A stretch of DNA of 64,000 nt from Pirellulaceae bacterium (GTDB lineage Bacteria; Planctomycetota; Planctomycetia; Pirellulales; Pirellulaceae), in NCBI GenBank assembly GCA_965233625.1, contig OZ247499.1:4884419-4948418 (forward strand), read 5' to 3'. Below are positions 305 to 49,738 of this stretch, piece after piece. The notes beneath the pieces were generated by a model. The model was given only the letters and a program-made list of their open reading frames with translations. It was not told the DNA's origin and did no database searches. Made by a program: the position numbers and the translations under genes. The stretch's first letter is position 1, and each line of letters starts with the position of its first letter.

Positions 305-417
305 CGAGGGGCGTTTGATGTGGATGCGAAAACGGGGGTTTTTGGCCGTATTCTGGTGGACTTCAACCGGCGATGCGCTGTTAATTCCGGCGTCCCTTGC
401 TCGCGCTTCGGGTTAGT
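305..417 (+). repeat. 5'-truncated copy of the ~145-bp palindromic repeat element (PRE family); only the right half and right terminal inverted repeat are present
   Basis: The segment 'cgaggggcgtttgatgtggatgcgaaaacgggggtttttggcc...cgtcccttgctcgcgcttcgggttagta' aligns with the inner and right-terminal parts of the copies at 17648, 19952, 48476 and 49497. The left arm 'taacccgaagcgcgagc' is absent, and the IS110 5' flank lies immediately to the left instead. Confidence 0.6.
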
Positions 418-525
418 ATTCTTATTTGAATTTAAGGCTGAATGTGATTTTCAGCCTCAAAGTGTGCAGCTTTAAAACCTGTTGCCAGGTTAGGGTCATC
501 GCTGTTGAGTGAAACAGGAAGTGCT

Positions 526-7338: not shown

Positions 7339-7578
7339 ACAACTGCCACGCCTTTCGCTTAAAGATTTAGAAACCAGCCGCCGTGCGAAATTGCCGCGGC
7401 TGCCAGCGTGATGAGGATGGCGCCAGAGATGGTCCAGACCAGCATCTTGCGCTTCAGGCAATGTTCTTCATGTTGTTGCTGCATGATTCACGCCTCCGAT
7501 CCACGCGTTTACGACCTTCGATTCCCGTCCGACAGTCTGTTAAGCGCAGACGGTGACGATGTGTTACGGTGGAAGCCT

Positions 7579-7992
7579 ATGGCCACACATCAGCAGTTCT
7601 TAGACGCAATCGCCGCCGCGCCGGATGATCCGGCGCCTTGCTGGATGTATGCGGACTGGCTGGAAGAGCATGGAAATCCGCTATGTCATGCGTGGCGAAA
7701 CGGAATGACGCGCGTTCGATTACGTACAGACTACTCTCGCCTTCACGAGGATGGTGGCAATGGTGATGGGTTTGGCTTTGGCGATGGTATAGGCTCTGGC
7801 TCCGGCGATGGCTCCGGCAATGGCGTTGCCTCTGGCTATGGCTATCCGTTATGTTCTGGCGCTGGCTTTGGCGATGGCGCTGCTTTTGGCTACGGTTATG
7901 ACATTGGTCCTTCTAGTGGGGACGGCTACGGCTACGGCAAAGGCGATGGCGATGGCTTCGGCAATGAAATCAGTGCCGGCTCCTTTAGATGA
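7579..7992 (+). CDS. TIGR02996-like 'repeat-companion' N-terminal domain protein with a Gly/Asp/Tyr-rich low-complexity tail
   Basis: FLDAIAAAPDDPAPCWMYADWLEEHGNPLCHAW matches the planctomycete 'LxAIxAxPDDDxPRLVYADWLEExGDP' signature. The remainder consists of GDGxG/GYGYG repeats. The ATG at 7579 was chosen because the 5' part of the ORF, rich in Cys, looks non-coding. Confidence 0.55.
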   Translation: MATHQQFLDAIAAAPDDPAPCWMYADWLEEHGNPLCHAWRNGMTRVRLRTDYSRLHEDGGNGDGFGFGDGIGSGSGDGSGNGVASGYGYPLCSGAGFGDGAAFGYGYDIGPSSGDGYGYGKGDGDGFGNEISAGSFR

Positions 7993-12375: not shown

Positions 12376-12430
12376 ACACTAACCCGAAGCTCGCGCTCCG
12401 GGTTAGTGCATGATGCGAAAAACTTGTGTA
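12376..12430. repeat. miniature PRE copy (fused termini only) plus the flanking 'gcgaaaaacttgtgta' motif
   Basis: The sequence 'cactaacccgaag-ctcgcgctccgggttagtg' is the left terminal arm fused to the right terminal arm of the 145-bp element. It is followed by 'catgatgcgaaaaacttgtgtat', the same motif that flanks copies A (17648-17669) and D (49642-49664). Confidence 0.55.
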
Positions 12431-12488
12431 TCCCGCGCACTCAGGGCGCGGGGGCGTTGGGACCGCTGCTCTTCTAAGCCTCGTTCTT

Positions 12489-14177
12489 CTAAGCTTCGTC
12501 CGGCGGATCGATCTTGGCGTCCTGTGCGGCGAGGCGTAGCTTGCCGAGGGCGCGGGCTTCGATCTGGCGGATGCGTTCTTTGGTCACGCCCATTTCGGCG
12601 CCGACTTCTTTCAGCGTCTGCGGCTCTTGCTTGTGGTTCAAGCCAAAGCGGCTGACGATGATCTTCTTCTCGCGGTCATCCAGCTTGGAAAGGATACGGT
12701 CCACCTGTTCTTTGCGAAGATGCTGAGCCAGCTCTTGCAGATAAAGGTTGGTGCCGTCGTCTTCCTGGCTGGCGAACATTTCGTCCGTCGACGTGCGGAA
12801 GCGGTCGCGGTGTTTGTACTCGTCCGGAATGGTCCGGGCGAAGTTCTTCATAATCGCCCAGCTGGCATACGTGCTGAACTTGTTGCCGCGGGCATAGTCG
12901 AACTTTTCAACCGCGCGGATCAGCGACATGTTGCCATCGCTTACCAGTGGGAAGAAATCTTCCGTCGGCGAAACGTGCCGCTTGGCGATCGATACGACCA
13001 GCCGCAGATTGGCTTTGATGATCTGGTTTTTCGTGGCTAACGCCTGCGAGTACAGATCTTCAATTTGCTGCATGACCGCGGTTTTCGCCCGCGAGGGGTC
13101 CAGCGTCTCACGCAGTTTGCTGGCTTTGTGCTTCAGATAGTTGAAGCGGCGGAACAGGTGATACTCCTGCTCACGGACCAGCAACGGTGTTTCGTACAGA
13201 GACGCCAGGTACTGTGGCAGCCCGGCCGGAACACGCGTCTTACGTGGTTTGGTTTCCGGTTCTGGCATCGGCGCCAGGATTTCTTCCTCGTTGGCTGCAT
13301 CTTCGAACGTTTCGTTATAGATGTAGTCCAGGGGCAGGTCGAGAATCCGCTTCGCACGGACTTCGTTCACAATACGGTGAATGCTGCCCGGCGTGCGGCA
13401 GTACTTCTTGGCCAGCTTCTCAATGCTATCGCCGCTGCGCATCTGGCGGTGCTGCGAGTAGATGGAGTTTTTGGCTTCCTCTGTGAGGGGGCCGGTCTGG
13501 CCGGGGAAGACCGCCATGGTCGGATGTTCTTCGTCAAACTGCCGGATGGTGTAGCGGATGGTTTCGACGCTGCGGCCCTTGCGGCTTGCGATGCGGCGGG
13601 TGATGTCCGCCGGGCAGCCGCCATCGAGCACCATCTGACGGGCCATCGCGATAATCTCATCGCGGTCTTCGTCCGTCATCTGGCTGAAGCGTTCGCCGCG
13701 TTTGACGCGTTCTTTGTTGTGCTGCTGGAAGTATTCCACGCTGCTCTGCAAAAAGCCTACACGTTTGCGACCACCAAAGATGAAACGGCGGCTGGTTAAT
13801 CCTTTGTCACGCCAGCGCGAAATCGTCTTGGTGGAGACATTAAACATGCGGCTGACTTCGTCGAGCGTCAGCACGGGTTCGGCAATTTCATCCACGCTGA
13901 TATCGGCCGAGTCGGAAAGATCTTCCAGGAACAGCCGCAGATCGTGGTGCGCAACATCGCCCGGGATGGGTTCACCGGCTGCGTTGTCGCCGTCTTCACC
14001 TGCAAACCCGGTCACGCGGAACCGCAGATAGCTGAAAGGGTATTCGCGTTTGGGGTCCAGTTCGCGGAGTAGTTTCTCGGTGCGTTCGAGCTGATCAAAT
14101 TTTGTGTCGCGCGGTGCGTAACGGGTCTGTTCGTCACGCAACTGGCGGATGACTGTGTTTTTGTAATCGGAATGCAT
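12489..14177 (-). CDS. rpoD: RNA polymerase sigma-70 factor (principal sigma, RpoD/SigA-like) with a long N-terminal extension
   Basis: Region 2 is present as LRLVVSIAKRHVSPTEDFFPLVSDGNMSLIRAVEKFDYARGNKFSTYASWAIMKNF. Regions 3 and 4 are present as LDDREKKIIVSRFGLNHKQEPQTLKEVGAEMGVTKERIRQIEARALGKLR. The ATG at 14177 is the MHSDYK start. Confidence 0.9.
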   Translation of the reverse strand: MHSDYKNTVIRQLRDEQTRYAPRDTKFDQLERTEKLLRELDPKREYPFSYLRFRVTGFAGEDGDNAAGEPIPGDVAHHDLRLFLEDLSDSADISVDEIAEPVLTLDEVSRMFNVSTKTISRWRDKGLTSRRFIFGGRKRVGFLQSSVEYFQQHNKERVKRGERFSQMTDEDRDEIIAMARQMVLDGGCPADITRRIASRKGRSVETIRYTIRQFDEEHPTMAVFPGQTGPLTEEAKNSIYSQHRQMRSGDSIEKLAKKYCRTPGSIHRIVNEVRAKRILDLPLDYIYNETFEDAANEEEILAPMPEPETKPRKTRVPAGLPQYLASLYETPLLVREQEYHLFRRFNYLKHKASKLRETLDPSRAKTAVMQQIEDLYSQALATKNQIIKANLRLVVSIAKRHVSPTEDFFPLVSDGNMSLIRAVEKFDYARGNKFSTYASWAIMKNFARTIPDEYKHRDRFRTSTDEMFASQEDDGTNLYLQELAQHLRKEQVDRILSKLDDREKKIIVSRFGLNHKQEPQTLKEVGAEMGVTKERIRQIEARALGKLRLAAQDAKIDPPDEA

Positions 14178-14982
14178 AATGCACCTCTTCCTTTGGGCCG
14201 GCGCCTGAAACCGGACCCGCAGATAACTTAGGCGGCGTTCCCTGCGACTCCCATCGCTCCACCTAAGTCCCATACCTGGGCGTGTGGTCTGTCCCAGACC
14301 ACCGTGACCGGCAGCTTAAAGCTACCGCTGTATTTGCTTCAGCAGCGACGTGGCTGCGAATGATTCAATTGAGCTAAATCGTCGTTGAAATGACTTGTGC
14401 CAAAATGACGTAACGGATGCTTGTTGTGATGAGAATGAGCAAAGGGTGGGCCGGGTGTTCAATTATCTGTGTCTTACAAGACACTTTTGTCCGTAGGGAT
14501 CGATTCCGGCGCGGGGCTTCTACTAGGTATACGCTGGACATCCAGCTTTGTTTCAAATTGTTCGCTGTGTTTCCACTGATTTATTCCCAAAGTCACCGTA
14601 ACACTAACTGCTTCAAACGGTTGCGAGTGGCCGGAATAAACCGGTTTCCGGGTGGAATTTTCCAGGTGACGAGGTCTTCGCCACCTTAAAAAAGACTTGC
14701 TCCGGGTGAGTGTGCTGCTACGCGTTTAATGCAAAGGGTGTTAGTAAACGATGGCAATGAAATCAGCTAGCAATACGTGCTACCGATGGAAACTGCATGT
14801 ACTTTGCGGATGACGTGATGAATGTTTTGGTTGAACTTCGATCGCCAATACCGTCGATGTAACCGTTACATACGACACCTCTGGTCGCAGCCTACTGATA
14901 TTGGCAGGGGTTATTCGCGGCGACCGTGTATTTATTGGACGCATGTGGCGCGTTTCTGGTTACCAGATTGGCGAAAAAAATC

Positions 14983-16473: not shown

Positions 16474-17610
16474 ATGAACCGCGCCAGAACCGTGGCCTGC
16501 TTTCTGCTACTAACGCTGTCCGTATCTCCGCTCGCGGCCCAGGGACCGGGCGGTATTGCCGGCGCCTTGCGGGCGCTGAGCCCGTTTTCGTCTGTTGAGG
16601 CGGATAAGAACAAAACCTACACGCTGACCGATAAGCACGGTCCGTGGCTGATTTACGCAGCCTCGTTCACCGGCGAAGGCGGCGCGAAGCAAGCCAATGA
16701 GCTGGTGTATGAACTGCGCCACGATCATCAGCTAGAAGCGTACATCACCAAGCACCACTTCGACTTTAGCGGCCGGATGACCGGTCTGGGGCTGCAGGAA
16801 GATGGCTCGCAGCAGGTTATGCGTCACCGCCGTAACGTCGCCTTCGACCAGTACGCCGTGATGATCGGCAACTTCAAAGATGTCTACGATCCGCAGGTGG
16901 AAACCACGCTGCAACGCATCAAGCACATGCAGCCTGTTACATTGGACCCGACCAAACGGGAAGTGACTTATCACAGCCTGGGCCTGTGGCGTGAAGTGCA
17001 ACGTCGCGTCAGTCCCAACCGCAAAGTGCGGAGCATGGGTCCGATGCGGGCGGCGTTTGTCACGCGTAATCCGCTGATCCCAGCTTCCTTCTTTGCACCC
17101 AAGGGTCTGGACCCGCTGGTGGTGAAGATGAACCGCGATGTTCAGTTCAGCCTGCTGAAGTGCCCCGGTAAGTACTCCGTGAAGGTCGCAACCTTCCGCG
17201 GCAGAACCACGATGGACACCAAGAAGATTGAACAGCTCATGGCCGCGCCCACCGACAGCAGCCAGCTTGCGGTGGCAGCCCACAAAGCCCACACGCTGAC
17301 CACAGCGTTGCGCAACCGCGGCGTAGAAGCGTACGAATTTCATGACCGGCACGAAAGCATTGTCGCCGTCGGTTCGTTCTCGTCGGTCGGAACCAAACGC
17401 CCCGATGGCAAGATCGAAATCAATCCGGCCGTGCACGCCATTCTGAAATCGTACGGCGCCTCGCAAGTAAACATCCCTGGCCGCGGGCTGCAGGCCCCAA
17501 CGCCGCACAGCTTTGGCAACATCCCCTTCGACATCCAGCCGATGCCGATCGAAGTGCCACGGCATTCAGTAGCCAGCGACTACGCACAGCGTAGCTCCAT
17601 CTTCGAATAG
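16474..17610 (+). CDS. secreted hypothetical protein (378 aa)
   Basis: The SD 'aaggagacg' is followed by the ATG at 16474 and a signal peptide, MNRARTVACFLLLTLSVSPLAAQG. Confidence 0.6.
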   Translation: MNRARTVACFLLLTLSVSPLAAQGPGGIAGALRALSPFSSVEADKNKTYTLTDKHGPWLIYAASFTGEGGAKQANELVYELRHDHQLEAYITKHHFDFSGRMTGLGLQEDGSQQVMRHRRNVAFDQYAVMIGNFKDVYDPQVETTLQRIKHMQPVTLDPTKREVTYHSLGLWREVQRRVSPNRKVRSMGPMRAAFVTRNPLIPASFFAPKGLDPLVVKMNRDVQFSLLKCPGKYSVKVATFRGRTTMDTKKIEQLMAAPTDSSQLAVAAHKAHTLTTALRNRGVEAYEFHDRHESIVAVGSFSSVGTKRPDGKIEINPAVHAILKSYGASQVNIPGRGLQAPTPHSFGNIPFDIQPMPIEVPRHSVASDYAQRSSIFE

Positions 17611-17647
17611 AAGTCCGCGGCATAAGCCCCTTTGGGGCGTTGATATC

Positions 17648-17813
17648 TACACATGTTTTTCGCACCCCACATTAACCCGAAGCGCGAGCGAGGGGCGTTT
17701 GATGGAGTGCGAAAAACAAGGGGTTTTGGCGAACCGACTTCAAGTCGATAGTCTTCTTGACGGGCCATTCGCAGCAACGCGGGACGCCCCTCGCTCGCGC
17801 TTCGGGTTAGTGT
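17648..17813 (+). repeat. PRE copy A: ~145-bp element with perfect 26-bp terminal inverted repeats, plus the flanking 'ctacacatgtttttcgc' motif
   Basis: The left arm is taacccgaagcgcgagcgaggggcgt and the right arm is acgcccctcgctcgcgcttcgggtta. The inner sequence is cgtttgatggagtgcgaaaaacaaggggttttggcg.... Confidence 0.8.
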
Positions 17814-17832
17814 TGTTGTAACTAGACGGTCA

Positions 17833-18831: not shown

Positions 18832-18967
18832 CGAACGGGCCAATTCCTCAGCGGCACTGACAAAACTGCCAGCGGCAAGCGGTCTATTTTCACCGGCAGC
18901 GACACATTGTCCACCGCCCTAAGAGGTTAACCGCAAGTGGTTGGCGTCGATCACTGGGGAAACAACC

Positions 18968-19038
18968 GTAGGTCAGGCGCCTGCCTGACGATGAAACGGA
19001 CTCCACTTCAAACGCCGTCAGGCAGGCGCCTGACCTAC
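18968..19038. repeat. perfect 23-bp inverted repeat (gtaggtcaggcgcctgcctgacg / cgtcaggcaggcgcctgacctac) around a 25-nt loop, followed by gggtttttgg; a terminator-like hairpin
   Basis: Read directly from the sequence. About 20-bp direct repeats flank it: ttggcgtcgatcactgggga at 18940-18959 and ttggcgtcaatcactgcgga at 19070-19089. Confidence 0.6.
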
Positions 19039-19085
19039 GGGTTTTTGGCACATCGCACTAGATAATTGGCGTTTGTTGGCGTCAA

Positions 19086-19871
19086 TCACTGCGGAAGCAG
19101 TTCGTGCAAAAGATGCGCGTGCACGCAGATAGCCAGATTGATCGGGTGATGCGTCTGGCGTTCTTCAAAGGCCGTGACCGTGCGATCGGTAATCCGGTGA
19201 TGCCCCACCACGATGCCGATGACGGATTGCTTTGCGTTCTTGTCGCTGCCGGCCGGACGCGTGACGACCACGGCGCCGCTGTCGCCGCCGAAGTTGCTGT
19301 AATTGATCAGAAAGGTAGAGGCCGTGGCGTTGGAACTGGGGGGATAGCTGGCCACGCTGCCACGCCGCAGGACAGGCCAGCCGACGGTGTCTGCTTCAAT
19401 CTTGGCGGGGAAGCAGGGGATGAAGCAGATATCGCCCAGCGAGACGCGTTCCGCTTTGATTTGTTCCTGGCTGCTGATCTGCTCCAGCTCAAAGGGTTGA
19501 ATATCAATCCCGGCGGGAAACGCGAATTTCATCACCGCCAGATCCGCCGTGGCGTGCTGCCGCCACAGAGGCCGCCCATCCATGCGGACGCGGATGGGTG
19601 TTTCCAGACGCTCGTACTGGCCATCTTCCTTCTTCTTGCGCAACACCAGCTTACAGACATCGCGTTTCATATCGTTCATCACATGCGCGGCGGTCACCAG
19701 CATGGCGCCTTCTTTGCCACGCACCACAAAGCATGTCCCCGAAGTGCGCCCGTCCGAAATCCGGAACGAAGCCCGCATCGCGTCCAACGCATCCCCCGCC
19801 GACGCCCCAGAGGTCAAAGCCGCCAGCATCATGAAAGTAAAAACAACAACCGCATGCAATCTCACGGTCAT
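19086..19871 (-). CDS. secreted trypsin-like (S1 family) serine protease
   Basis: A signal peptide, MTVRLHAVVVFTFMMLAALTSGASA, is followed by the catalytic-His context TAAHV and the catalytic-Ser motif GGDSGAVV. Confidence 0.8.
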   Translation of the reverse strand: MTVRLHAVVVFTFMMLAALTSGASAGDALDAMRASFRISDGRTSGTCFVVRGKEGAMLVTAAHVMNDMKRDVCKLVLRKKKEDGQYERLETPIRVRMDGRPLWRQHATADLAVMKFAFPAGIDIQPFELEQISSQEQIKAERVSLGDICFIPCFPAKIEADTVGWPVLRRGSVASYPPSSNATASTFLINYSNFGGDSGAVVVTRPAGSDKNAKQSVIGIVVGHHRITDRTVTAFEERQTHHPINLAICVHAHLLHELLPQ

Positions 19872-19951
19872 GCAAAAATCCTGTCAGTGGAAGTGAACGG
19901 GTTATCAGATGAACGATGGCGGTTAATCACGCTCAGCGGATTTCGCTTGCA

Positions 19952-20096
19952 ACATTAACCCGAAGCGCGAGCGAGGGACGGTTGATTGAGCGCGAAAAAC
20001 AAGGCGTTTTGGCGATACAGGTTCAAATCGAAAATCTTCCTGACCGGCCATTCCTGGGCAACGCGGGGCGTCCCTCGCTTGCGCTTCGGGTTAGTG
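19952..20096 (+). repeat. PRE copy B
   Basis: The sequence runs acattaacccgaagcgcgagcgagggacggttgattgagcgcgaaaaacaaggcgttttggcg...gggcgtccctcgcttgcgcttcgggttagtg. It has the same architecture and orientation as copy A. Confidence 0.8.
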
Positions 20097-20161
20097 TTCA
20101 TTCGCCAAAGCGTGAGAGTTCTGCACCCTTGCCGGTTTGCAATTGTCCAGCTACCAACCGC

Positions 20162-22549
20162 TTAGCTGCGTGTGATGGTTTCGTGCAGATTCAGAATCGC
20201 GCGGGCCAGGGCGGTCCAGGCGGCGAGTTCTGGTTTGGCGATGTCCGCCGGCAATGGCGCCTCGCCGGTCGAAAGCAGCGCGGCTGCGGCGGCTTCATCT
20301 TTGGCGTAACGCTGACGCTGCTGTTTCAGCAGTCCCAACAGAATGTCCGCTTCCGCTTGCGAAGGTGGACGCGATACCGCCCGCAGGAACATCCGCTCGA
20401 TCCGCTCTTTCTCGCTGCTGGCTTCGCGCTTCAAAGCACGTGTAGCGAAGGCGCGGGCCGCTTCGACATAGGCCGGGTCGTTCAACAGCACCAGCGACTG
20501 CGCCGGCGTGTTGCTGCGCGGACGCTCGGCGACGCATTCTTCCCGCGCTGGTGCGTCGAAGGCACGCATCGCCGGATGCCAGAAACTACGCCGCCAATAG
20601 GTATACACGCCCCGGCGGTACAGATCGGCGCCATGATCCTGCACGTACTTGCCATCTTTGTAAAGCTTGTACCAATAGTTGGCCGGTTGATAAGGCTTCA
20701 CGCTGCGGCCGCCCATTTTCTTCGAGAGCAGGCCGCTGATCGCCAGCGCGTTATCGCGGACCAGCTCCGCATCCAGGCGGTAGCGGTTCTGCCGGGCGAA
20801 GAGGCGGTTTTCCGGATCGCGGGCGGCGATCTCCGGCGTGGGGGTCGAACTGCGGCGGTACGTTCCGCTAAGTGCGATCAGCTTCATCATGTGCTTCACG
20901 TCCCAACCGCTTTCCATAAACTCAACGGCCAACCAGTCGAGCAGTTGCGGGTGCGAAGGCCATTCGCCTTGCGAACCGACGTCGTCCAGCGTGCGGGCGA
21001 TGCCCTTGCCCATCATCAGTTTCCACAGCCGGTTCACAAACACGCGGGCCGTCAGCGGATTTTTGCGGCTGGCAATCCAGGCTGCCAGATCCAGCCGCGT
21101 GAGCCGCTCATCGGAATCTTTGCCGCTGCCTAAGAAACCAGGAACGGCGGGCGTAACGACTTCGCCACTGTCGTCCAGCCAGTTGCCACGCGGCAGCACG
21201 CGCATGGTGCGTGGCTTGGTGGTTTCTGTGACCAGTGTTTTGGGCCAAGTCTTGGCGTCCGACGCTTTCTTCAGTTCCGCCTCAAGCTTGGCAAGCTGCT
21301 TGGTCATGGCCTGATGCTGGTCACCGCCCTGCGACGTGTTAGGCAGCTTTTCTTTCAGCGTGGCAATCTCATTTTCCAGCTGTTTCATCTTCGCGATCTG
21401 TTCGCTGGTGGGCATGTGCAACTGCTGCGGATAGCCCACGCCGCGTTCTTTCAGGTCGGCGAAGAATGCGGCGAAGCTGTAGAAGTCGCGTGCGGAAAAT
21501 GGATCGTACTTGTGATCGTGACACTCAGCGCAGCCGAGCGTGGTGCCCAGGAAGATTGCCGATGTATTGCGGACGCGGTCGGCGGCGTAGATGGCCAGAT
21601 ACTCTTTCGGCTGGGCGCCGCCTTCGCTGGTCGTCTGGTTCAGCCGGTTGAAGCCCGATGCGACCTTCCACTTATACTCCTGAAACTTGTCGCCCTTGAG
21701 CATATCGCCTGCCAGTTGTTCTTTGACAAACTGATCGAATGGCAGGTTCTGATTGAAGGCATCAATCACATAGTCGCGGTACAGCCAGACCTCGCGGTGC
21801 GAATCTTTGTGATAGCCCACCGAGTCGGCGTAGCGCACCAGGTCCAGCCAGTACAACGCCATTCGTTCGCCATATTGCGGCGAAGCCAGCAGCCTTTCGA
21901 CAACCCGTTTGTAAGCCGCGGGCGAAGGGTCCGCCACAAAAGCCTCTACCTCATCAGGCGTCGGCGGCAGCCCCGTCAGGTCCAGCGTAACGCGGCGGAT
22001 CAGCGTGCGCGGATTGGCGGCAGGCGCCGGGCGGATGTTCTCCCGCTGAAGACGCTGCAGAATGAAGGCGTCGATATCGCCAATCTTCACACCCGACTCT
22101 GCGGCTGGCTTAACCACGGGCACATCGGGCCGCGCGGGCGGAATAAAGGCCCAATGCCCCTGCCACGGGGCGCCCGCTTCAATCCACCGCCGCAACACAT
22201 CCCGCTGCGCCGGTTTGAGGGAAAGGTGCGATTCCGGCGGCGGCATCAGTTCGTCAGGATCGTCGGAAACGATACGGCGCCAGGCTTCACTATCTTCCAG
22301 CCCGCCGCCAAATGCATCGACAATGCCTTCATGCGTATCAAACCGCATATCGGCTTCGCGCGTACTCTTATCCGGCCCATGACAGCGGAAACAGTTCTGC
22401 GAAAGCAGCGGCCGGATATCACGATTAAACTGCGGCGGCTCAAGCACCTTCTCCGCGGCGCGACAGATATTCAGCGGCAACATGCCCCATGCAAGGACGC
22501 AGACGCCCGCAGAAGCAAGCCGTAATAACGCCACAAAATTCAAATGCAT
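20162..22549 (-). CDS. planctomycete PSCyt1 (cytochrome-c-like) / PSCyt2 (DUF1549) / PSD1 (DUF1553) domain protein, secreted
   Basis: A signal peptide is followed by the N-terminal motif NCFRCHGPDKSTREADMRFD, the characteristic CxxCH-like 'planctomycete cytochrome C' signature. The size (795 aa) and composition are typical of DUF1549/DUF1553 proteins. Confidence 0.8.
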   Translation of the reverse strand: MHLNFVALLRLASAGVCVLAWGMLPLNICRAAEKVLEPPQFNRDIRPLLSQNCFRCHGPDKSTREADMRFDTHEGIVDAFGGGLEDSEAWRRIVSDDPDELMPPPESHLSLKPAQRDVLRRWIEAGAPWQGHWAFIPPARPDVPVVKPAAESGVKIGDIDAFILQRLQRENIRPAPAANPRTLIRRVTLDLTGLPPTPDEVEAFVADPSPAAYKRVVERLLASPQYGERMALYWLDLVRYADSVGYHKDSHREVWLYRDYVIDAFNQNLPFDQFVKEQLAGDMLKGDKFQEYKWKVASGFNRLNQTTSEGGAQPKEYLAIYAADRVRNTSAIFLGTTLGCAECHDHKYDPFSARDFYSFAAFFADLKERGVGYPQQLHMPTSEQIAKMKQLENEIATLKEKLPNTSQGGDQHQAMTKQLAKLEAELKKASDAKTWPKTLVTETTKPRTMRVLPRGNWLDDSGEVVTPAVPGFLGSGKDSDERLTRLDLAAWIASRKNPLTARVFVNRLWKLMMGKGIARTLDDVGSQGEWPSHPQLLDWLAVEFMESGWDVKHMMKLIALSGTYRRSSTPTPEIAARDPENRLFARQNRYRLDAELVRDNALAISGLLSKKMGGRSVKPYQPANYWYKLYKDGKYVQDHGADLYRRGVYTYWRRSFWHPAMRAFDAPAREECVAERPRSNTPAQSLVLLNDPAYVEAARAFATRALKREASSEKERIERMFLRAVSRPPSQAEADILLGLLKQQRQRYAKDEAAAAALLSTGEAPLPADIAKPELAAWTALARAILNLHETITRS

Positions 22550-30047: not shown

Positions 30048-30191
30048 ATCAGCCTGGCGGTGGTGGAACACGGTGCAAGTTGTGTGAATCGCAGCGTTGT
30101 AGGCAGCCGCGTTTCACCAACGATTAGACGCCATCGCCGCAAAGACGTGAACCGGGGTGCGAATGTGCCGTTGTACGCAACGATCTGTGAC

Positions 30192-30230
30192 TCCCCTCAC
30201 CCCAGCCCTCTCCCCAGAGGGGCGAGGGGG
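30192..30230. repeat. ~40-bp 'cccctcaccc(c/t)a(g/a)ccctctcccc(a/g)gaggggcgagggg' element, copy 1
   Basis: The sequence is ctcccctcaccccagccctctccccagaggggcgaggggg. The same motif occurs at 40109, 60395 and, degenerate, 49398. Confidence 0.7.
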
Positions 30231-30417
30231 CCAGCACGGTCTCGATGCGAATGTTTGAGACGCCGGGAGGTTCTAGCCCTATAATTCAACGGACGAACAT
30301 ACCGGCAAATTTGTGCAATATTTCTGCGGTGCGGGCGAACTACGTGCGGCTTTGATTTCGCAGATAGGCGGATTGAAGCTGCCTGGGATCCGTGAATTTG
30401 AACAAGGGAGAAGGGTC

Positions 30418-40051: not shown

Positions 40052-40108
40052 AGAAGCGTTTCCCGTCGTGTCTGCCACTACGGATCGCACCGTGCGGAGA
40101 AAGCCGTG

Positions 40109-40147
40109 CCCCCTCACCCTAGCCCTCTCCCCGGAGGGGCGAGGGGA
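40109..40147. repeat. ~40-bp 'ccctcaccctagccctctccccggaggggcgagggga' element, copy 2
   Basis: Read directly from the sequence, 57 nt after the stop at 40051. Confidence 0.7.
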
Positions 40148-40410
40148 CCAGAAACTGCACCTTCATCTGATCGCCGGTTGGTCGCTCGCTTGCCAGCACT
40201 GCGCGCAGGTTGTTCCGTTATTGCGGCAAATTCGGCTTCTTACCACCAGGAACCATTACAGCGGTTAGGCCTGTTGCGCCGATAGAGAACAAACAACAGG
40301 CGCCTGGAGGTTCTACCTCTGCGCCTGTGTAAACCGTGGGGCATTTGCAAATACATGGCTCTGGCTGTCCGGCAGCGAGGGTCCAATACGCCAGACTGAA
40401 GGTTCAACCT

Positions 40411-41367: not shown

Positions 41368-41461
41368 GAGCAGCATCCGCCGTTAGCACCGCACACAAGA
41401 AGAACAGCACAGACCTGGTAGGCAGGACGCTTACCGTTTGATTATCGCATGGAGGCGACAG

Positions 41462-44400
41462 ATGAGCTGGCTCCGCAAAATTACACGGAAACTCTGGAAG
41501 AAGCCGGCAGGCAACGCCTGCTGCGATTCCAACGCCAACTCCACCGGGCGCGTCTGCGGGTTCGAAGAGATGGAACCGCGGCGGATGCTGGACGCAGACC
41601 CCATTCAGATCGGCGCCGTGTTCCTGGAAACAGACGACGGCGCCGACACACAGGCCGATGTCTTCGAGATCAGCTTTGAAGGCGGCGCCGCCGGGACGCA
41701 GCTGAAAGAGGTTTATATTGACCTGGATCAGACACCCGGTGGAACGCCCGGTATCTTGCAGGCGCCTGATCTGTTCTTCGACACGGCTGATACTGGTTTT
41801 GGCAGCCGCGAAGCGCATGCGTTTCAGGTCGTTAACGGCGCTGGTGACGGCATCGACAGCGTGCAGGCCGAAGTCGTCGACGGCACCTCGCAGTTGAAGC
41901 TGACGTTCGAAGGCTTCGACGCGGGTGAGAAATTCGTCTTCAGCATCGACGTCGATCACGCCAACCGCACGTTTATCAACGACAACTTCGACCTGCTCAA
42001 TACGGGCAACCCCAACGACCTGACGGCGGCTGAACTTTCCTACATCAACGACAACTCATTTGACTCGCTGGCGTCTGGGCGTGAGTTCGCCACGTCGCAG
42101 TTCCACGCTACCTTCGTGGCGCCCGGCTTTGCCGAGACAACCGGCATGGGCCGTTATGCCGACGATTACAACTTCAACGGAACCACGTTGCAGTTGACCG
42201 GCGATAGCGACACCAACCAGCCCAACCGCACCGACGGTGTGCACTTTCAGCTGGAGCAGGAAGAACTGCCCGTCACTATCAGCGGCCGCGTGTTCCACGA
42301 CCGCGACTTCAACCTGGTGCAGGACGGAACCGGCGCAGATGAAGATCACGGCATCGCCGGCGTTGAGCTATCTCTGCTGAAGCTGAACGAAACCACCAAC
42401 CAGTACGAAGACACCGGCCACACCGCCACCACCGACATCAACGGCGACTATCTGTTCGGCGAAGACCTGGGCCTGGGCTCTGGTACTTACAGTGTGGTCG
42501 AAACACAGCCGGGCGATTATCCGTACAGCGTGGGCGCCATTCCCGGTACGGTTGAAGGCGCCACGTCCGGCGTTGTGGGGCCGTTTGATAACAACGTGAT
42601 CGAACAGATCGTCATCCCGCTGGGCGGACAGGATTCGATCAACAACGATTTTGCCGAAGCCAAGCCGGTTGAGATCAGCGGCTTCGTCTATCACGACCGC
42701 AACGATAACGGCATCCGCGAAACGGGCGAAGAAGGTATCGAAGGCGTCACCATCCGCCTGCTGCCTATCAACACGGTTTCGCTGGAAACGCCGCGCGAGA
42801 TGCAGACCGGCGCCGATGGTTCTTACTCGTTTGAAGGTCTGGCCCCCGGCGAGTACGAAGTTTACGAGATCCAGCAGCCAACCGGTTACATCGACGGTAA
42901 AGACACCGCTGGCAAAATCGGATCGGACACAGTTGGCGTTGCTGGCAACGAACAGATCACCGAGATTTTCCTGCCCAGCGATTCTAAGGGTGTGGAATAC
43001 AATTTCGGTGAGATTCAGGAAGCACGCATCAGCGGCAACGTGCACCTTTCGACGCCCGAAGGCGAATGCTTTGAAGATAACCCCAGCACGCCTTACGTGC
43101 CTATTCCAGGCGTCCGGGTTGAGCTGACAAACCTTGACACCAATGAAGTCCGCCACACGTTTACCGATCAGAACGGCGATTACTCGTTCGACGGTCTGCC
43201 GCCGGGCAACTACAAGGTGGTTGAATTCACGCCGGCAGATGTGCTGGATGGCGGCGCCCGCGTCGGCGAAACGCCTGGTCCTGGCGATGGCATCCTGGAC
43301 CCGGCCGATCCTTCCAACATCATCACCAACATCACGCTAGAGCCCGGCGCCGTCGCCGTAAACTACGACTTCTGCGAGCATCTACCCGCCGAGATTGCCG
43401 GTAATGTCTACCACGACCGCAACAACAACGGCCTGCGTGAAACGGGTGAAGAAGGTATCGGCGGCGTCACCATTATTCTCCGCGACGCTGCGACCGGCGA
43501 CTTCATTTCCGACACCACCACGGAAACTGATGGCTCGTATAAGTTCGAGGGGTTAACCCGCGGCGATTACACGCTCGAAGAAGTGCACCCCACTGCCTAC
43601 ACGGACGGCAAAGATACGGCTGGCACCGTCGGCGGCACGACGCACGGCGTGGCGACGAATGATCTAATCAGCGACGTCCATCTCGACTTCGGCGAGGCGG
43701 GCATCGAGTACAACTTTGGCGAACGTCTGCTGGCGGAAATCAGCGGTAACGTCCACCTCTCGACACCCGATGGCGACTGCTTCGAAGATCTGCCGCAGGG
43801 CGAAGAATACCGCCCCATTGAAGGCGTGCTGATCCGGCTGATCAACGAAGACACCGGCGCCGAGATTACGCAGCTGACGGACTCTGAGGGCAACTACTCT
43901 TTCAAAGATCTTGACCCCGGCACTTACACCGTTGTCGAAACGACGCCGACGGGCTTGATCAACGGCGGGGCACGTGTTGGCGAAACACTGGGCGACGCCG
44001 ACGGCGTGCTCGACGCGCTGCGGCCGGGCGATGCGATCACCAGCATCGAACTAGAGCCCGGCGCCGTTGCCGTGAACTACGACTTCTGCGAGCACGAACC
44101 GGCTTCGATCAGCGGTCACGTGTACCACGATGCCAACAACGATGGCCTGTTCGACAAGATCAACGAAGATCCCATCCCAGGCGTCCGTGTGATTCTTCGC
44201 GATGGCAATGGCAACTTCATTGCTGAACGCACGACCGAAACCGACGGCAGCTACAGCTTTGAAGGCCTGGAAAAAGGCGAGTACATCCTCGAAGAAATTC
44301 ATCCCAATGCCTGGATCGATGGTAAAGACACCATCGGTACGGTCGACGCCATTCCTAACGGCTTTGCTGGCGATGATGAGTTCCTGGCCATCAATCTGCT

Positions 44401-47191
44401 CTACGGCGATGAAGGCGTTGAGTACAACTTTGGCGAACGGCTGCTCGGATCGCTCCGCGGTAATGTGCATCTATCCGACGGTCTGGGCGACTGTTTTGAT
44501 GACAACGTCATCTATCAGCCACTTCCCGGTGTTACCGTTCAGCTGATCGATCAGGCGACCGGAAACATCATCCGCACGACCACGACCGACAATCAGGGCG
44601 ACTACGAATTCGTTGACCTGGAAGCCGGCACCTACACGATTGTCGAAATCACACCGGCCCACCTGCTCGATGGCGGCGCCCGCGTAGGCAACATCGATAA
44701 CGTGGATGTGGGCGTGCTGGAGAACCCCAGCCGGATCAGCACCATCGTGCTGGACCACGGTGAAAACGGTGAAGATTACGACTTCTGCGAACACGAACCG
44801 GCCACCATCTCTGGCTTCGTCTATCACGATCGTGATAACGATGGCCTGAAAGAGACGGGCGAAGAAGGCATCAAAGACGCCATCGTGATTCTCCGCGATT
44901 CGGCGGGCACCGAAATAGACCGGCAGACGACCGGCGATAATGGCGAATACAGCTTCACCGGCCTGAAAGCAGGCGAGTACACACTCGAAGAAATTCAGCC
45001 TTCGGCCTATCTGGATGGCAAGGACACCACCGGCCAGATCGGCGGCAGCGACGTGGGCGTAGCTGGCAACGATGTGATCCAGCAGATTGTTCTGCCCGGC
45101 GGCTCTGACGGCGTGAACTATAACTTCGGCGAACTGCTACCGGCCAGCATCGAAGGTTACGTGCATTCGGACCCGGATCTGAACTGCATCTTCGATATCG
45201 ATGAAGACCCGATCGCAGGCGTGACAATTATTCTCCGCGATGCGAACACCGGCGACATCCTTGCCGATACGGTCACCGACGCCAACGGTCACTATAAGTT
45301 CGACAACCTCGGACCCGGCGAATTCACCATCGAGGAAATTCAGCCCGTAGATTACTTCCAGGGCGGTCAGGTTGTAGGTGTGACCGGCAACGGCGACGCG
45401 ACGGTCGACAACTTCCTGTCGTCCATCACGATCCAGTCGGGCGATGCTCTGGAGAATTACAACTTCTGCGAGATTCCTGCCGGCCGGATCTCTGGCTTCG
45501 TCTTTGTGGACGGCGCCCCGATTCTGACCGACACCGGCGCCCCGCCGAGCGACCTCACCGGCATCCGCGATGGCGTGCTGACCAACGACGATACCCGCAT
45601 CCAGGGCGTAACGCTGGAACTGCGTAACGGTATCACTGGCGACGTGATCAACGGCGAAGACCTGTTGCCCGGCGCCTACCCGAACGGCCCCGTGCAGACT
45701 CAGACCGACGCCAACGGCTTCTACGAGTTCACCGGGCTGCCGCCTGGCAGCTACGCCGTGTACGAAATTCAGCCGGTGCAGTACTTCGACGGTATCGATA
45801 CGCCGGGCACCACTTCCGGCATTGCCGTGAACCCGAATCAACCGCGTTCGGCAGCGGAACAACAATCTATCTTCCTGCTCTCGGAAGATCCTGGCGACGA
45901 CGCGATTATCCGCATCGCTCTGGGAATCGGCGACTCGTCCGAACTGAACAACTTCAGCGAGATCGAGACCACGGTCGGACCGCCGCCGCCGCCGCCACCT
46001 CCACCACCGCCACCACCACCACCGCCTCCACCACCACCGCCGCCACCGGGCACACCGCCCGATGTGCCGCAGGCGCCAACGGCTGCCACTCCGCCGTCGT
46101 CCGTGCTTGCTGTGGCAGGGGGAACCACCGTTTCGACCGTTCGCACCACTGGCGGGTTTGAGTTCAAACCTTACAGCTGGCACCTGAGCGTGATTAACGC
46201 AGGCACCCCGCGTGGTAACGGAGTAGAACTTGCAGAAACCGACACCTTCCAGCAGGCGGGGCACATCAGCCGCGATCGCTGGCAGGCGGAAGACCTGCAA
46301 GGCGGTTCGTTTGAACTGGTCACCGGCTACAACGATCCCGGCAGCCGCGAATTCTCAGAGAAACTGTTTGGCCTCGAAGGCGCCATTCCGGTTTCCGGAG
46401 ACTTCAACGGCGACGGAACCGATGAAGTTGGCGTCTTCCTCAACGGCGAGTGGTTCATTGATATCAATGGCAACGGACGTTGGGACTCAGAAGACCTATG
46501 GGCCAGCCTCGGCGGCGATAAGGACATACCTGTCACCGGCGACTGGGATGGCGATGGCAAAGACGACATCGGTATCTTCGGGCCGCAGTGGTCGGGCGAT
46601 CCGCACGCTATCGAACGCGAACCCGGTCTGCCCGATGCAGACAACGAGCGCAAGATGGTGGACCTCCGCGACGAACTGCTGCGGCGCAAGAACATGCCGC
46701 CACAGCGCGAAGACGCCACCAACGGCCACCGCGTGATGCAGCGTACGCCGGAAGGACGCGTACGGGCCGACGTTATCGACCACGTCTTCCGTTACGGTGA
46801 ACGGCACGATATGCCCGTGGCCGGTGACTGGAACGGCGACGGTATCCGCGACATCGGTATGTTCCGCGATGGCGTGTGGTATCTGGATGTCGATGGCGAC
46901 GGACGCATCAGCTACGCCGACAAACGGATCGAGTTCGGCGCCGCTGGCGACGTGCCTGTAACCGGCGACTGGAACGGCGACGGCATCGAAGATATCGGCG
47001 TCTACCGCAACGGCGTCTGGCATCTGGATGTCAACGGCAACCACGAGCTGGAAGCGGTCGATCGCGTGTTCGAGATGGGCGGCGCCGGCGATACGCCCAT
47101 CACCGGTGACTGGGACGGCGACGGTGTCGACGAACCAGGCATCTACCGCCACGGTCAACACCTGCGGCAAGCCCGTCGCGACGCCAGCTAA
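41462..47191 (+). CDS. giant secreted adhesin-like protein: ~10 SdrD-B/CnaB-like domains in tandem, a poly-Pro linker, and C-terminal FG-GAP/VCBS-like repeats
   Basis: The ATG at 41462 is preceded by 'ggagg'. The N-terminus carries FEEMEPRRMLDADP. Two alternating domain types are seen: ISGFVYHDRNDNGIRETGEEGIEGVTIRLL...GSYSFEGLAPGEY, and ISGNVHLSTPEGECFED...GVRVELTNLDT...GDYSFDGLPPGNY. A run of about 23 consecutive Pro follows. Then come five GDWNGDGxxDIGxF repeats. Confidence 0.85.
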   Translation: MSWLRKITRKLWKKPAGNACCDSNANSTGRVCGFEEMEPRRMLDADPIQIGAVFLETDDGADTQADVFEISFEGGAAGTQLKEVYIDLDQTPGGTPGILQAPDLFFDTADTGFGSREAHAFQVVNGAGDGIDSVQAEVVDGTSQLKLTFEGFDAGEKFVFSIDVDHANRTFINDNFDLLNTGNPNDLTAAELSYINDNSFDSLASGREFATSQFHATFVAPGFAETTGMGRYADDYNFNGTTLQLTGDSDTNQPNRTDGVHFQLEQEELPVTISGRVFHDRDFNLVQDGTGADEDHGIAGVELSLLKLNETTNQYEDTGHTATTDINGDYLFGEDLGLGSGTYSVVETQPGDYPYSVGAIPGTVEGATSGVVGPFDNNVIEQIVIPLGGQDSINNDFAEAKPVEISGFVYHDRNDNGIRETGEEGIEGVTIRLLPINTVSLETPREMQTGADGSYSFEGLAPGEYEVYEIQQPTGYIDGKDTAGKIGSDTVGVAGNEQITEIFLPSDSKGVEYNFGEIQEARISGNVHLSTPEGECFEDNPSTPYVPIPGVRVELTNLDTNEVRHTFTDQNGDYSFDGLPPGNYKVVEFTPADVLDGGARVGETPGPGDGILDPADPSNIITNITLEPGAVAVNYDFCEHLPAEIAGNVYHDRNNNGLRETGEEGIGGVTIILRDAATGDFISDTTTETDGSYKFEGLTRGDYTLEEVHPTAYTDGKDTAGTVGGTTHGVATNDLISDVHLDFGEAGIEYNFGERLLAEISGNVHLSTPDGDCFEDLPQGEEYRPIEGVLIRLINEDTGAEITQLTDSEGNYSFKDLDPGTYTVVETTPTGLINGGARVGETLGDADGVLDALRPGDAITSIELEPGAVAVNYDFCEHEPASISGHVYHDANNDGLFDKINEDPIPGVRVILRDGNGNFIAERTTETDGSYSFEGLEKGEYILEEIHPNAWIDGKDTIGTVDAIPNGFAGDDEFLAINLLYGDEGVEYNFGERLLGSLRGNVHLSDGLGDCFDDNVIYQPLPGVTVQLIDQATGNIIRTTTTDNQGDYEFVDLEAGTYTIVEITPAHLLDGGARVGNIDNVDVGVLENPSRISTIVLDHGENGEDYDFCEHEPATISGFVYHDRDNDGLKETGEEGIKDAIVILRDSAGTEIDRQTTGDNGEYSFTGLKAGEYTLEEIQPSAYLDGKDTTGQIGGSDVGVAGNDVIQQIVLPGGSDGVNYNFGELLPASIEGYVHSDPDLNCIFDIDEDPIAGVTIILRDANTGDILADTVTDANGHYKFDNLGPGEFTIEEIQPVDYFQGGQVVGVTGNGDATVDNFLSSITIQSGDALENYNFCEIPAGRISGFVFVDGAPILTDTGAPPSDLTGIRDGVLTNDDTRIQGVTLELRNGITGDVINGEDLLPGAYPNGPVQTQTDANGFYEFTGLPPGSYAVYEIQPVQYFDGIDTPGTTSGIAVNPNQPRSAAEQQSIFLLSEDPGDDAIIRIALGIGDSSELNNFSEIETTVGPPPPPPPPPPPPPPPPPPPPPPPGTPPDVPQAPTAATPPSSVLAVAGGTTVSTVRTTGGFEFKPYSWHLSVINAGTPRGNGVELAETDTFQQAGHISRDRWQAEDLQGGSFELVTGYNDPGSREFSEKLFGLEGAIPVSGDFNGDGTDEVGVFLNGEWFIDINGNGRWDSEDLWASLGGDKDIPVTGDWDGDGKDDIGIFGPQWSGDPHAIEREPGLPDADNERKMVDLRDELLRRKNMPPQREDATNGHRVMQRTPEGRVRADVIDHVFRYGERHDMPVAGDWNGDGIRDIGMFRDGVWYLDVDGDGRISYADKRIEFGAAGDVPVTGDWNGDGIEDIGVYRNGVWHLDVNGNHELEAVDRVFEMGGAGDTPITGDWDGDGVDEPGIYRHGQHLRQARRDAS
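42250..45500 (+). repeat. in-frame tandem coding repeats, period ~715 bp (pairs of CnaB-like domains), 4-5 units
   Basis: The recurring peptide 'E(I/P)(A/S)(E/S)ISG(F/N/H)VYHD(R/A)N(D/N)NG' starts near 42661, 43381, 44098 and 44803. Confidence 0.6.
45979..46047 (+). repeat. poly-proline codon tract (ccg/cca/cct)n
   Basis: The DNA reads ccgccgccgccgccacctccaccaccgccaccaccaccaccgcctccaccaccaccgccgccaccg, which encodes the continuous Pro run of about 23 residues. Confidence 0.85.
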
Positions 47192-48337: not shown

Positions 48338-48475
48338 ACACCCGTTCCTTCCCACCGCCAGCCACAACAGCCGCCAGTGACATTCCCCTTCAATTCGAGT
48401 GTAAAGCCGCCCCGCAAAGCCGTCAAACCAGTTCAGCTATTAGCGTGCAGTTGCGAAGATGCAGCGCGCATTTGC

Positions 48476-48618
48476 ACTAACCCGAAGCGCGAGCGAGGGA
48501 CGCCCCGCGTTGGTGCGAATGGCCCGTCTAAGCTGCTTTCGACTTCATGCGATTTGGCCAAAACACCTTGTTTTCTGCACTAAATCAAACGTCCCTCGCT
48601 CGCGCTTCGGGTTAGTGT
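48476..48618 (-). repeat. PRE copy C, in inverted orientation relative to copies A and B
   Basis: The sequence runs cactaacccgaagcgcgagcgagggacg...gccaaaacaccttgttttctgcactaaatcaaacgtccctcgctcgcgcttcgggttagtg. The inner sequence is the reverse complement of the copy A inner sequence. Confidence 0.8.
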
Positions 48619-48693
48619 GCCAATGCACCTTGTGGGAAAGGTTGGCGTGAAGTGCCGGGTGAGGGCATTTCCCGGCTGCTGGAAAGCGTGGGC

Positions 48694-49263: not shown

Positions 49264-49397
49264 CGGAATCAGAATGTGAAGCCGCGTTGCTGTAAGTCCA
49301 TCGTTAATCCGTAGGATCGAGCGATGATTGTAGCAAAACGCCTGTCAACTGTATGCCGGTCGTTCTAGCAACGCGTTGATGCAGGACGGATTCTGTG

Positions 49398-49430
49398 CCC
49401 CCTCACCCTAACCTTCTCCTCGAAGGTAAA
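49398..49430. repeat. degenerate copy of the ~40-bp 'ccctcaccctaacc(c/t)tctcc' element
   Basis: The sequence gccccctcaccctaaccttctcctcgaaggtaaagg shares the first ~22 nt with the other three copies and then diverges. Confidence 0.5.
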
Positions 49431-49496
49431 GGTATCTACACAAGTGGAAACCTGAAGAAGGTGAATTAGCTTTAGAACTTTATTCGACGCACTAAA

Positions 49497-49664: not shown

Positions 49665-49738
49665 GATACCAATGCCAAAGGGTCGAGGGAACCAGATGTG
49701 GCGATTAGATAACGCCACAACGTCGTATGCCGGTCGTT

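Follow-up and report, generated by a model that had tools for sequence, protein, structure and literature searches.

How can a short palindrome hold its two ends almost constant while its middle drifts from copy to copy? The question is raised by a 64,000-nucleotide stretch of a Pirellulaceae genome (contig OZ247499.1; this whole stretch is called the window below), in which a sequence-only reading had described a family of ~145-bp palindromic repeats in seven copies. The family is present, and a profile search together with a reading of the sites gives six copies. It had been taken for a dispersed element maintained by its ends, resembling a miniature inverted-repeat transposable element (MITE) or a repetitive extragenic palindrome (REP), and this description has held up well: the arms are found in ~56 other genomes, and their presence and absence is polymorphic at orthologous loci. 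The most notable property of the family is the conservation of its arms across a whole bacterial class, which that reading had missed. In our view, the six copies are members of a repeat family common to the class Planctomycetia, made up of small interspersed elements that form hairpins and are mobile without being autonomous, of the kind represented by MITEs and by REPINs (REP doublets forming hairpins), and we put the probability of this reading at roughly 60%.

Distribution of the arm across Planctomycetota

The exact 22-mer of the arm, TAACCCGAAGCGCRAGCGAGGG, is not confined to the loci of the window but occurs in at least 105 stretches elsewhere, from ~56 assemblies of a species-representative genome collection. 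Among the matches listed, 104 of the 105 stretches are labelled Planctomycetota, and the carriers are Pirellulales/Pirellulaceae, Planctomycetaceae, Isosphaeraceae (including Singulisphaera), Gemmataceae and Thermoguttaceae. The partner arm, which was not used in selecting these loci, differs from the 22-mer by a mean of 0.75-1.75 mismatches in Planctomycetaceae, Pirellulales, Thermoguttaceae, Isosphaeraceae and Gemmataceae. To judge from these comparisons, the conservation of the arm appears unusually deep for a small mobile hairpin repeat.

The sole match without a Planctomycetota label among those listed (L055; CAVVXV010000013.1, a 1.72-Mb contig labelled "beta proteobacterium") has two hairpins with more diverged arms and a GC content at third codon positions (GC3) of 0.7-0.9. 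It could represent a mislabelled bin or a horizontal transfer, and an NCBIfam scan of it was uninformative.

The density of the element differs between genomes. The 64-kb window holds six elements, other carrier genomes have ~1 further element per 56 kb, and 56 kb of DNA that had not been selected for the arm, taken from Anatilimnocola floriformis and the two closest relatives found, is free of it. The arm was found on two viral contigs only and on no plasmid, on which grounds a phage or plasmid origin was rejected. Three metagenome contigs have the arm plus a ACGTTTGA junction, and one of them (L109) looks like a decayed relative. On this evidence the 145-bp form is lineage-specific.

In the literature searched, neither the arm string nor any of its four peptide translations appears in a relevant paper. 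The two string matches, both to CGCTTCGGGTTA, are in papers on E. coli and Pseudomonas aeruginosa, and combining planctomycetes with REP, MITE, hairpin or REPIN retrieved general REP papers only.

The arm pair as a hairpin unit

Across genomes, the element reads CAYAC-TAACCCGAAGCGCRAGCGAGGG, a loop, and then CCCTCGCTYGCGCTTCGGGTTA-GTRTG, with TAAC and GTTA forming the base of the stem. When arms have a neighbouring arm within 400 nt, 97 pairs stand in this hairpin order (TAAC outside), against 6 and 4 direct pairs and 3 pairs with the opposite order. The loop is 10-139 nt long, unrelated between genomes and common to the copies of one genome, and the whole element measures 54-190 bp across genomes (147 bp in the window). 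Watson-Crick pairing between the arms is 0.87-1.0 at positions -2 to +21, except at position 1 (0.80) and position 14 (0.71); it is 0.49-0.72 at -5 to -3 and 0.74 at +22, and drops to background level outside -5 to +24. Pairing and conservation together span from 5 bases outside TAAC to ~2 bases inside GAGGG.

That the two arms act as one unit is suggested by their outermost bases. Compensatory outer stems are seen in three assemblies (CTTCG/CGAAG, CTTCA/TGAAG, CATCA/TGATG and AATCA/TGATT), and where outer 5-mers deviate from the consensus, 3.0 of their 5 positions are complementary, compared with 1.77 ± 0.23 after shuffling. Because the outer bases often change on both sides and their complementarity exceeds that of shuffles, complementarity itself appears to be maintained. 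We found no target-site duplication: at no boundary offset are there direct repeats of 2-8 nt beyond the palindrome's own.

The hairpin is formed by the arm pair only. In the 27-nt single arm CAYACTAACCCGAAGCGCRAGCGAGGG, which was inspected by eye and not folded, no self-complementary stem was seen, the sole candidate being CGC-AA-GCG with a 2-nt loop. About 45 arms have no recognisable partner; many of these have a decayed partner nearby, and ~10 are in short direct tandems. Direct tandem arms with a period of 28-44 nt are seen at L107:2341-2390 (an IMG/VR contig), L059, L012 and L092, and the tandem in L059, with a period of 33 nt, keeps the reading frame.

Gain and loss at orthologous loci

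Two loci from different Pirellulaceae assemblies, L013 and L059, are orthologous over several kb and differ in their arms. In L013, a DUF7133/cytochrome-c gene has a 36-nt in-frame insert (...DLTDSATNPKRERG...) with one arm, which is missing in L059 (76% amino-acid identity), and no paralogue that can be aligned over this region has a loop as long as that of L013 at the insert. A linker ~270 codons farther downstream holds two tandem arms (TNPKRKRG-TDD-TNPKRKRG) in L059 and none in L013. In the upstream intergenic region an arm is present in L013, and L059 is without an intact one. Arms are gained or lost between orthologous loci, and this happens also in frame inside a gene.

Single arms are read in frame inside long open reading frames (ORFs) as TNPKR(K/E)RG or LTRSASEG at several places (L013:5630-5770, L059:2660-2860, L032, L091, L093, L098 and L101), to which paired hairpins add PSLALRVS or PRLRFGLV. 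When a planctomycete ORF seems to be extended at its N-terminus, the cause is probably in many cases an untranslated hairpin that ORF calling has taken in.

The six copies in the window

In the window, the 23-mer arm CCCCTCGCTCGCGCTTCGGGTTA (up to 3 mismatches) has 9 matches, where 0.00 are expected from 100 shuffles. They form four pairs (17673/17809, 19956/20093, 48478/48614 and 49500/49638) and a lone arm at 393-415. A profile made from the window copies returns exactly six elements, namely four full copies of ~147 bp, one 5'-truncated copy and one mini-hairpin (Table 1).

Table 1. Copies of the hairpin repeat and occurrences of motif X in the window (energies are predicted)
Feature	Position	Strand	Sequence and fold	Gene context
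Copy A, full	17668-17814	+	left arm 17668-17698, interior 17699-17783, right arm 17784-17814; RNA -85.9 kcal/mol, z -8.9	between convergent genes 16474-17610(+) and miaA 17833-18843(-)
Copy B, full	19951-20098	+	arms 93%; RNA -80.9 kcal/mol	64 nt past stop of PSCyt/PSD1 gene 20162-22549(-); 80 nt upstream of peptidase gene 19086-19871(-)
Copy C, full	48473-48619	-	inverted relative to A; RNA -80.7 kcal/mol	75 nt past stop of gene 48694-49263(-)
Copy D, full	49495-49643	-	inverted relative to A; arms 93%; RNA -73.9 kcal/mol	96 nt past stop of HDOD gene 49739-50647(-)
Copy F, 5'-truncated	305-420	+	right arm 389-420; nhmmer match 275-435, E 1.8e-31	divergent region: partial minus-strand ORF (1-226) on one side, plus-strand gene (915-1871) on the other
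Copy E, mini-hairpin, 32 nt	12377-12408	-	CACTAACCCGAAGC followed by TCGCGCTCCGGGTTAGTG; RNA -21 kcal/mol, z -4.3	81 nt past stop of gene 12489-14273(-)
Motif X at copy A	17644-17663	+	TATCTACACATGTTTTTCGC; 4 nt upstream of the 27-nt left arm and 9 nt upstream of TAACCC	
Motif X at copy E	12415-12431	-	GCGAAAAACTTGTGTAT	
Motif X at copy D	49649-49668	-	GCGAAAAACTTGTGTAGATA	

The palindrome proper is ~27-30 nt per arm, counting the five outer bases CAYAC/GTRTG. The full copies are predicted to fold to a ~30-bp stem with energies of -74 to -86 kcal/mol as RNA (z -7.7 to -9.0) and ~-50 kcal/mol as DNA, so that the folding check proposed by the sequence-only reading comes out in favour of a stable hairpin. 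That reading had also described the arms as perfect over 26 bp. This is true of copies A and C only, the arms of C being perfect over 28 nt and those of A 97% complementary over 30 nt, and not of B and D (Table 1). Compared with each other, A and C are 83% complementary over 145 nt.

The near-identical ends and diverged interior that had been noticed are borne out by pairwise comparison of the full copies, with 91-98% identity in the arms and 58-78% in the interior of ~93 nt. The interiors of A, B and F run one way and those of C, D and E the other; the inversion of C and D had been recognised, and E shares it. Copy F was rightly seen as truncated at its 5' side: its left arm is gone except for CGAGGGG at 305-311, and its interior is homologous to those of A and B. 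Copy E, on the other hand, is not the clean fusion of two intact arms for which it had been taken, as an internal deletion has removed the inner halves and left only the outer halves of both arms. F and E are decay products. The family as a whole is dispersed and patchy in copy number, with arms ~95% identical while the loops drift, and with decayed forms that comprise solo arms as well as F and E.

Copies A to E lie 19-96 nt past a stop codon and F lies beside gene 5' ends, so that the earlier statement that all copies follow gene ends holds for the first five and fails for F. The genes flanking the copies are ordinary planctomycete genes, including miaA, a trypsin-like peptidase, a PSCyt1/PSCyt2/PSD1 protein and an HDOD protein. 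The MiaA protein is 100% identical to one on an NCBI/ENA contig of 7.8 Mb, and its next relative is 81% identical. Empty orthologous sites for the window copies were looked for in the closest relatives found (75-81% amino-acid identity, JGI sample 3300007643), which show no synteny with the window.

A proposed mechanism of spread

How could such an element move? We propose that the functional unit would consist of two arms of ~27 nt each, CAYAC-TAACCCGAAGCGCRAGCGAGGG and the reverse complement of this sequence, with a loop that is free to vary, and that a version with a ~93-nt loop, often with an adjoining motif X, would have multiplied in this genome. Copies would spread by cut-or-copy-and-paste via a single-stranded DNA hairpin, leaving no target-site duplication. 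The mobilising enzyme would be supplied in trans, would recognise the sequence of the arms, and would resemble the HUH-Y1 enzymes (REP-associated tyrosine transposases, RAYTs, or the IS200/IS605 type) that act on REPINs and REPs. It would be the need of this enzyme for the arms, not a service to neighbouring genes, that keeps the arms constant. A single-stranded hairpin intermediate of the HUH-Y1 kind is favoured over a DDE transposase by three observations: targets are not duplicated, compensatory changes are symmetric, and the pairs are strictly polar. As no enzyme was found, we infer this step of the mechanism.

By BLAST clustering, Pfam and a crude HUH-Y regular expression, no HUH-Y1 or RAYT gene was seen in the 64-kb window or in the 105 loci (674 kb), and at none of the loci examined does a transposase lie between paired arms. 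One candidate was considered and rejected. The 189-aa gene at 48694-49263(-), between copies C and D, could have formed a REPtron with them. This gene has no Pfam match, no HUH motif and no homologue in the other loci (105 selected by the hairpin and a few more), and the two orthologue loci examined are without arms. It belongs to a widespread hypothetical family with 3840 homologues at E<=1e-10.

Several points weigh against a mobile hairpin repeat. The engine of mobility is hypothetical, given that no transposase or RAYT was found nearby; indeed, no transposase, RAYT or recurrent gene stands beside ~117 elements. To our knowledge, near-identity over 22-27 nt across orders is deeper than has been documented for REP, enterobacterial repetitive intergenic consensus (ERIC) or Correia elements. 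Coevolving pairs of element and enzyme usually drift, hence deep identity of the arms is not obviously expected, and it could indicate a host function. The solo 27-nt arms that stand in frame are unexplained by a mechanism that moves only hairpins, unless one arm was deleted afterwards. The direction of the three presence/absence differences described above is based on one genome pair, with a paralogue outgroup for the intragenic case only. Finally, the statistics of gene context, to which we turn now, are built on simple GC3-based gene calls.

Genomic placement and alternative explanations

If the arms were kept for the benefit of the host, the hairpin could be selected as an RNA element, in which case its transcript would serve as a terminator, a 3'-end stabiliser or an RNase III site and a conserved protein would read the arms. 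The deep conservation of the arm would suit such a reader protein, the predicted RNA hairpins are very stable, and five of the six window copies lie shortly after a stop codon. REP elements are known to stabilise upstream mRNA (PMC3733652). We nevertheless think this explanation unlikely. Gene context was taken from the simple caller mentioned above, which reproduces the Pfam-supported genes of the window. Paired elements in intergenic regions are found in 34 tandem, 14 divergent and 14 convergent ones, which is the neutral 2:1:1 expectation. In tandem regions the hairpins are nearer to the upstream stop (median 57 nt) than to the downstream start (105 nt), but this trend is not significant (19 vs 14, p 0.49). 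Some copies are inside essential operons, where a strong terminator would harm: L104 reads nusG-[hairpin]-rplK-[hairpin]-rplA and L099 reads gcvPA-[hairpin]-gcvPB. In L072, hairpins stand on both sides of a 629-aa housekeeping-type gene. Arms are also found in coding sequence, and their abundance is patchy among relatives.

The sequence of the stems points the same way. There is no U-tract directly after the hairpin, which, together with a 2:1:1 placement that is not biased to 3' ends, sets it apart from intrinsic terminators; likewise, no T-run follows the stems, and a terminator scan gave nothing above shuffles. Stem mismatches sorted by transcribed strand are 19 G:U and 22 A:C, so that there is no excess of G:U over A:C as a signature of selection on an RNA strand. 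The role as terminator or stabiliser at the RNA level that had been suggested for the repeat is thus not borne out. Nor does any Rfam family match the element. Over the whole window, Rfam 15 gives 0 matches at gathering thresholds. In a permissive search with copy A and its flanks, the only model that spans the element is MIR8670, a plant microRNA precursor, at 33.5 bits against a gathering threshold of 150, which is a generic long-hairpin match; six other Rfam matches reach <=20.5 bits and are partial or cover the flank only.

The arm could also be a DNA recognition word for a conserved host protein, of an uptake-signal, nucleoid, segregation or repair-loading kind. It would then spread by recombination, and the inverted pairs would be a by-product, as in the pairs of DNA uptake sequences (DUS) in Neisseria. 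We regard this as improbable. It is the sequence and not the position of the arm that is conserved across the class, solo arms exist and some are in frame in coding regions, and inverted pairs after genes resemble the terminator pairs formed by DUS and by uptake signal sequences (USS). However, at 22-27 nt the arm is far longer than known uptake or architectural words, and the verified gain of an arm was a 36-nt insertion, not a series of point changes. Arms are sparse and very unevenly spread, with densities ranging between 1 per 11 kb and none in 56 kb. DUS and USS have a core of 9-12 nt, a high and even density and an origin by point substitution, and the arm has none of these. Moreover, the strict polarity of the pairs (97 against 3 in the opposite order) and the compensatory outer bases indicate a hairpin unit rather than independent sites.

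A resemblance to the attC sites of integrons has to be weighed as well. In that case TAAC and GTTA would be the R'' and R' boxes, the loop would be the variable terminal structure, and an integrase would act on the folded strand. In attC sites, too, the stem base runs from ..AAC to GTT.., the apex is variable, and the active form is the single strand in its folded state. The elements open with TAAC and close with GTTA, with a conserved stem base and a free apex of ~10-140 nt, and copies C and D bracket a single small gene. On the other hand, the planctomycete stems are continuously paired, without extrahelical bases or an unpaired central spacer. The copies are scattered singly between housekeeping genes and not in one-directional arrays, those in the window are of mixed orientation, and no integrase or other family recurs nearby. 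GTTAGTR matches GTTRRRY at just 5-6 of 7 positions. We therefore give this explanation very little credence and take it to be already largely refuted.

That the copies are chance palindromes or a local segmental duplication limited to this region, as the two tight pairs A/B and C/D (2.3 kb and 1.0 kb apart) might suggest, has practically no chance of being right and is already refuted by the 9 arm matches against 0 expected, by the spread of the copies over 49 kb with unrelated flanks, and by the same arms in ~56 other genomes.

The neighbours of the elements are varied. No Pfam family is matched by more than 3 of 148 neighbouring genes, and the BLAST clusters, from an all-against-all comparison, are ABC transporters, GFO/IDH/MocA, DUF1501, DUF1559 and kinases. 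All families recovered in this way are widespread in planctomycetes.

Motif X and other repeats of the window

The sequence-only reading had mentioned a second motif that accompanies several copies. This motif X, GCGAAAAACWTGTGTAG, indeed has 3 occurrences in the window against 0.18 expected. It is always separated by ~8 nt from the outer side of one particular arm, at copies A, D and E, and in its 20-nt form, TATCTACACAWGTTTTTCGC, it lies a few bases outside that arm (Table 1). An inverted partner of the outer half of D's motif X is found at 49433-49445; since D is thereby bracketed by inverted outer halves of motif X, it lies within a second, larger palindrome. At copy A, motif X is able to pair with GCGAAAAACAAGG inside the element. 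Motif X was not found in the other genomes examined (105 planctomycete loci).

In the other genomes, GAAAAAC is ~9-fold enriched in the 60 nt outside the arms (flanks of L005, L007, L013, L014, L015 and L054). It is kept in an orthologous intergenic region (L013:6190-6720 and L059:900-1420) whether the arm is present or not, and may represent a signal of the promoter type instead of a component of the element.

The window contains further repeats. A second, unrelated repeat, CCCCCTCACCCTAACCCTCTCCCCGGAGGGGCGAGGGGAC, is present in four copies (30166-30245, 40083-40162, 49372-49426 and 60369-60448), one of which is ~70 bp from copy D, and holds a short GC-rich hairpin, CCCTCTCCCC-GGA-GGGGCGAGGG. 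A unique palindrome at 18960-19046, between miaA and the peptidase gene, has 31-nt arms that are 94% complementary and a 25-nt loop; with AAA before it and TTTTT after it, it resembles a bidirectional terminator. In the product of the ORF at 7408-7992 (+), an N-terminal domain of planctomycete type (…WMYADWLEEHGNP…) precedes Gly-rich repeats (GDGFG/GSGDG), which cause a 12/24-nt periodicity of the DNA at 7749-7966. At 41438-47191 (+), a 1917-aa repeat protein is encoded with three internal repeats of ~714 nt, five 141-nt repeats of the DWNGDG type and a poly-proline tract (45980-46059).

Implications of a class-wide repeat

Small palindromic repeats such as REP/REPIN, ERIC, Correia and Rickettsia palindromic elements (RPE) are usually specific to a genus or a family, and both their persistence and their status as parasite or partner are debated. 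Here, one and the same 22-27-nt arm is kept across Pirellulales, Planctomycetales, Gemmatales and Isosphaerales, with loops, copy number and positions varying freely. A more far-reaching proposal, which we hold only tentatively, is that of an ancient class-wide partnership. A hairpin replicator would be paired with a conserved planctomycete enzyme, probably single-copy and vertically inherited, maybe a new or divergent HUH-Y1 or another single-stranded DNA enzyme, that moves or copies hairpins without target duplication and is also able to deposit single 27-nt arms in frame. If this were true, no other known interspersed repeat of bacteria would match it in depth of conservation, and several orders would share a REPIN-like system. 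If a conserved enzyme underlies the arms, they would offer a tractable case of very long coexistence between a replicator and its host lineage, and would direct attention to a DNA-hairpin enzyme that has yet to be described, in a phylum for which genetic tools are scarce.

There are practical consequences too. The element accounts for many spurious "hypothetical proteins" with TNPKRKRG, LTRSASEG, PSLALRVS or PRLRFGLV in planctomycete annotations. It disrupts short-read assemblies, and it could be used as a phylum-specific marker or as a target for repeat-PCR.

Comparison with known systems

The planctomycete repeat is close in behaviour to REPINs, in which inverted doublets form a long hairpin and singlets are remnants; here, 97 hairpin pairs stand against 13 other arrangements, with ~45 solo arms. 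In REPINs and REPs, the singlets are decayed remnants, there are tens to hundreds of copies, which are mostly extragenic and occasionally intragenic and in frame, no target site is duplicated, and persistence is apparently long (PMC3337134; bioRxiv 10.1101/2021.07.10.451892; PMC3733652). The planctomycete repeat likewise has no target-site duplication. It differs from a REP in that no self-complementary stem is visible in the single arm (by eye, not by folding), and in that it has no 5' GTAG/GGAG tag, its outer bases being CAYAC...GTRTG and paired. It differs from a REPIN in that the loop length is free (10-139 nt), whereas that of a REPIN is fixed, and in that no RAYT stands beside any copy examined. 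While REP sequences differ between genera or families, the planctomycete arm is kept across several orders.

Rhodopirellula baltica, itself a planctomycete, is reported to have many tyrosine transposases flanked by repeats (PMC3733652). Its GTAG-20 and GTAG-21 repeats (PMC3733652) encode different peptides and are thus other elements. TIR (terminal inverted repeat) repeats, which form TIRtrons with TIRYT, are long inverted repeats that are not REPs themselves and are tied to HUH-Y1 genes (PMC3733652). They are defined by the flanking transposase gene, and none was seen beside the planctomycete arms. Class 3 TnpA-Y1 transposases are reported "principally in Planctomycetes" and also in Acidobacteria, with atypical hairpins in up to ~600 copies (PMC6006769). 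By this description they are a possible lead for the mobilising enzyme. As far as the descriptions go, the class 3 and TIR hairpins are set apart by a CnGA foot that is reported as unpaired, whereas the CCGA of the planctomycete arm is inside the stem.

The Correia elements (NEMIS, Neisseria miniature insertion sequences, or CREE, Correia repeat enclosed elements) and MITEs offer another parallel. Correia elements are 100-155 bp long with terminal inverted repeats of ~26 bp and variable or deleted interiors, and have many intergenic copies that are co-transcribed with their neighbours, within the limits of one genus. With its terminal inverted repeats (arms of 27-30 nt) and a size within 50-500 bp, the planctomycete repeat resembles a MITE as well. 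Correia elements duplicate a target TA and MITEs duplicate their target; the planctomycete repeat does neither. ERIC sequences (intergenic repeat units, IRU) of Enterobacteriaceae and Vibrionaceae are imperfect palindromes of ~127 bp that are kept across genera and have size variants with internal indels. We know of no mobilising enzyme for them. Compared by description, ERIC is conserved over the whole element and the planctomycete repeat only at its ends, and ERIC is mainly in transcribed regions and in another phylum.

A precedent for arms inside genes is given by RPE, palindromic repeats whose in-frame insertions into protein-coding genes occupy tolerated loops (PMC3733652). RPE insert as whole elements of 100-150 bp, whereas the verified intragenic pieces of the planctomycete repeat are single 27-nt arms (within a 36-nt insert) or tandem arms. 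Taken together, the planctomycete repeat behaves like a REPIN or like a MITE reduced to its terminal inverted repeats, with in-frame insertion as in RPE, and is a strict member of none of these groups. The word "like" in MITE-like and REP-like is therefore apt, because the family fails the strict defining features of both. What appears to distinguish it, on comparison of its copies, is an arm of 22-27 nt that is kept across several orders while all else about the copies turns over.

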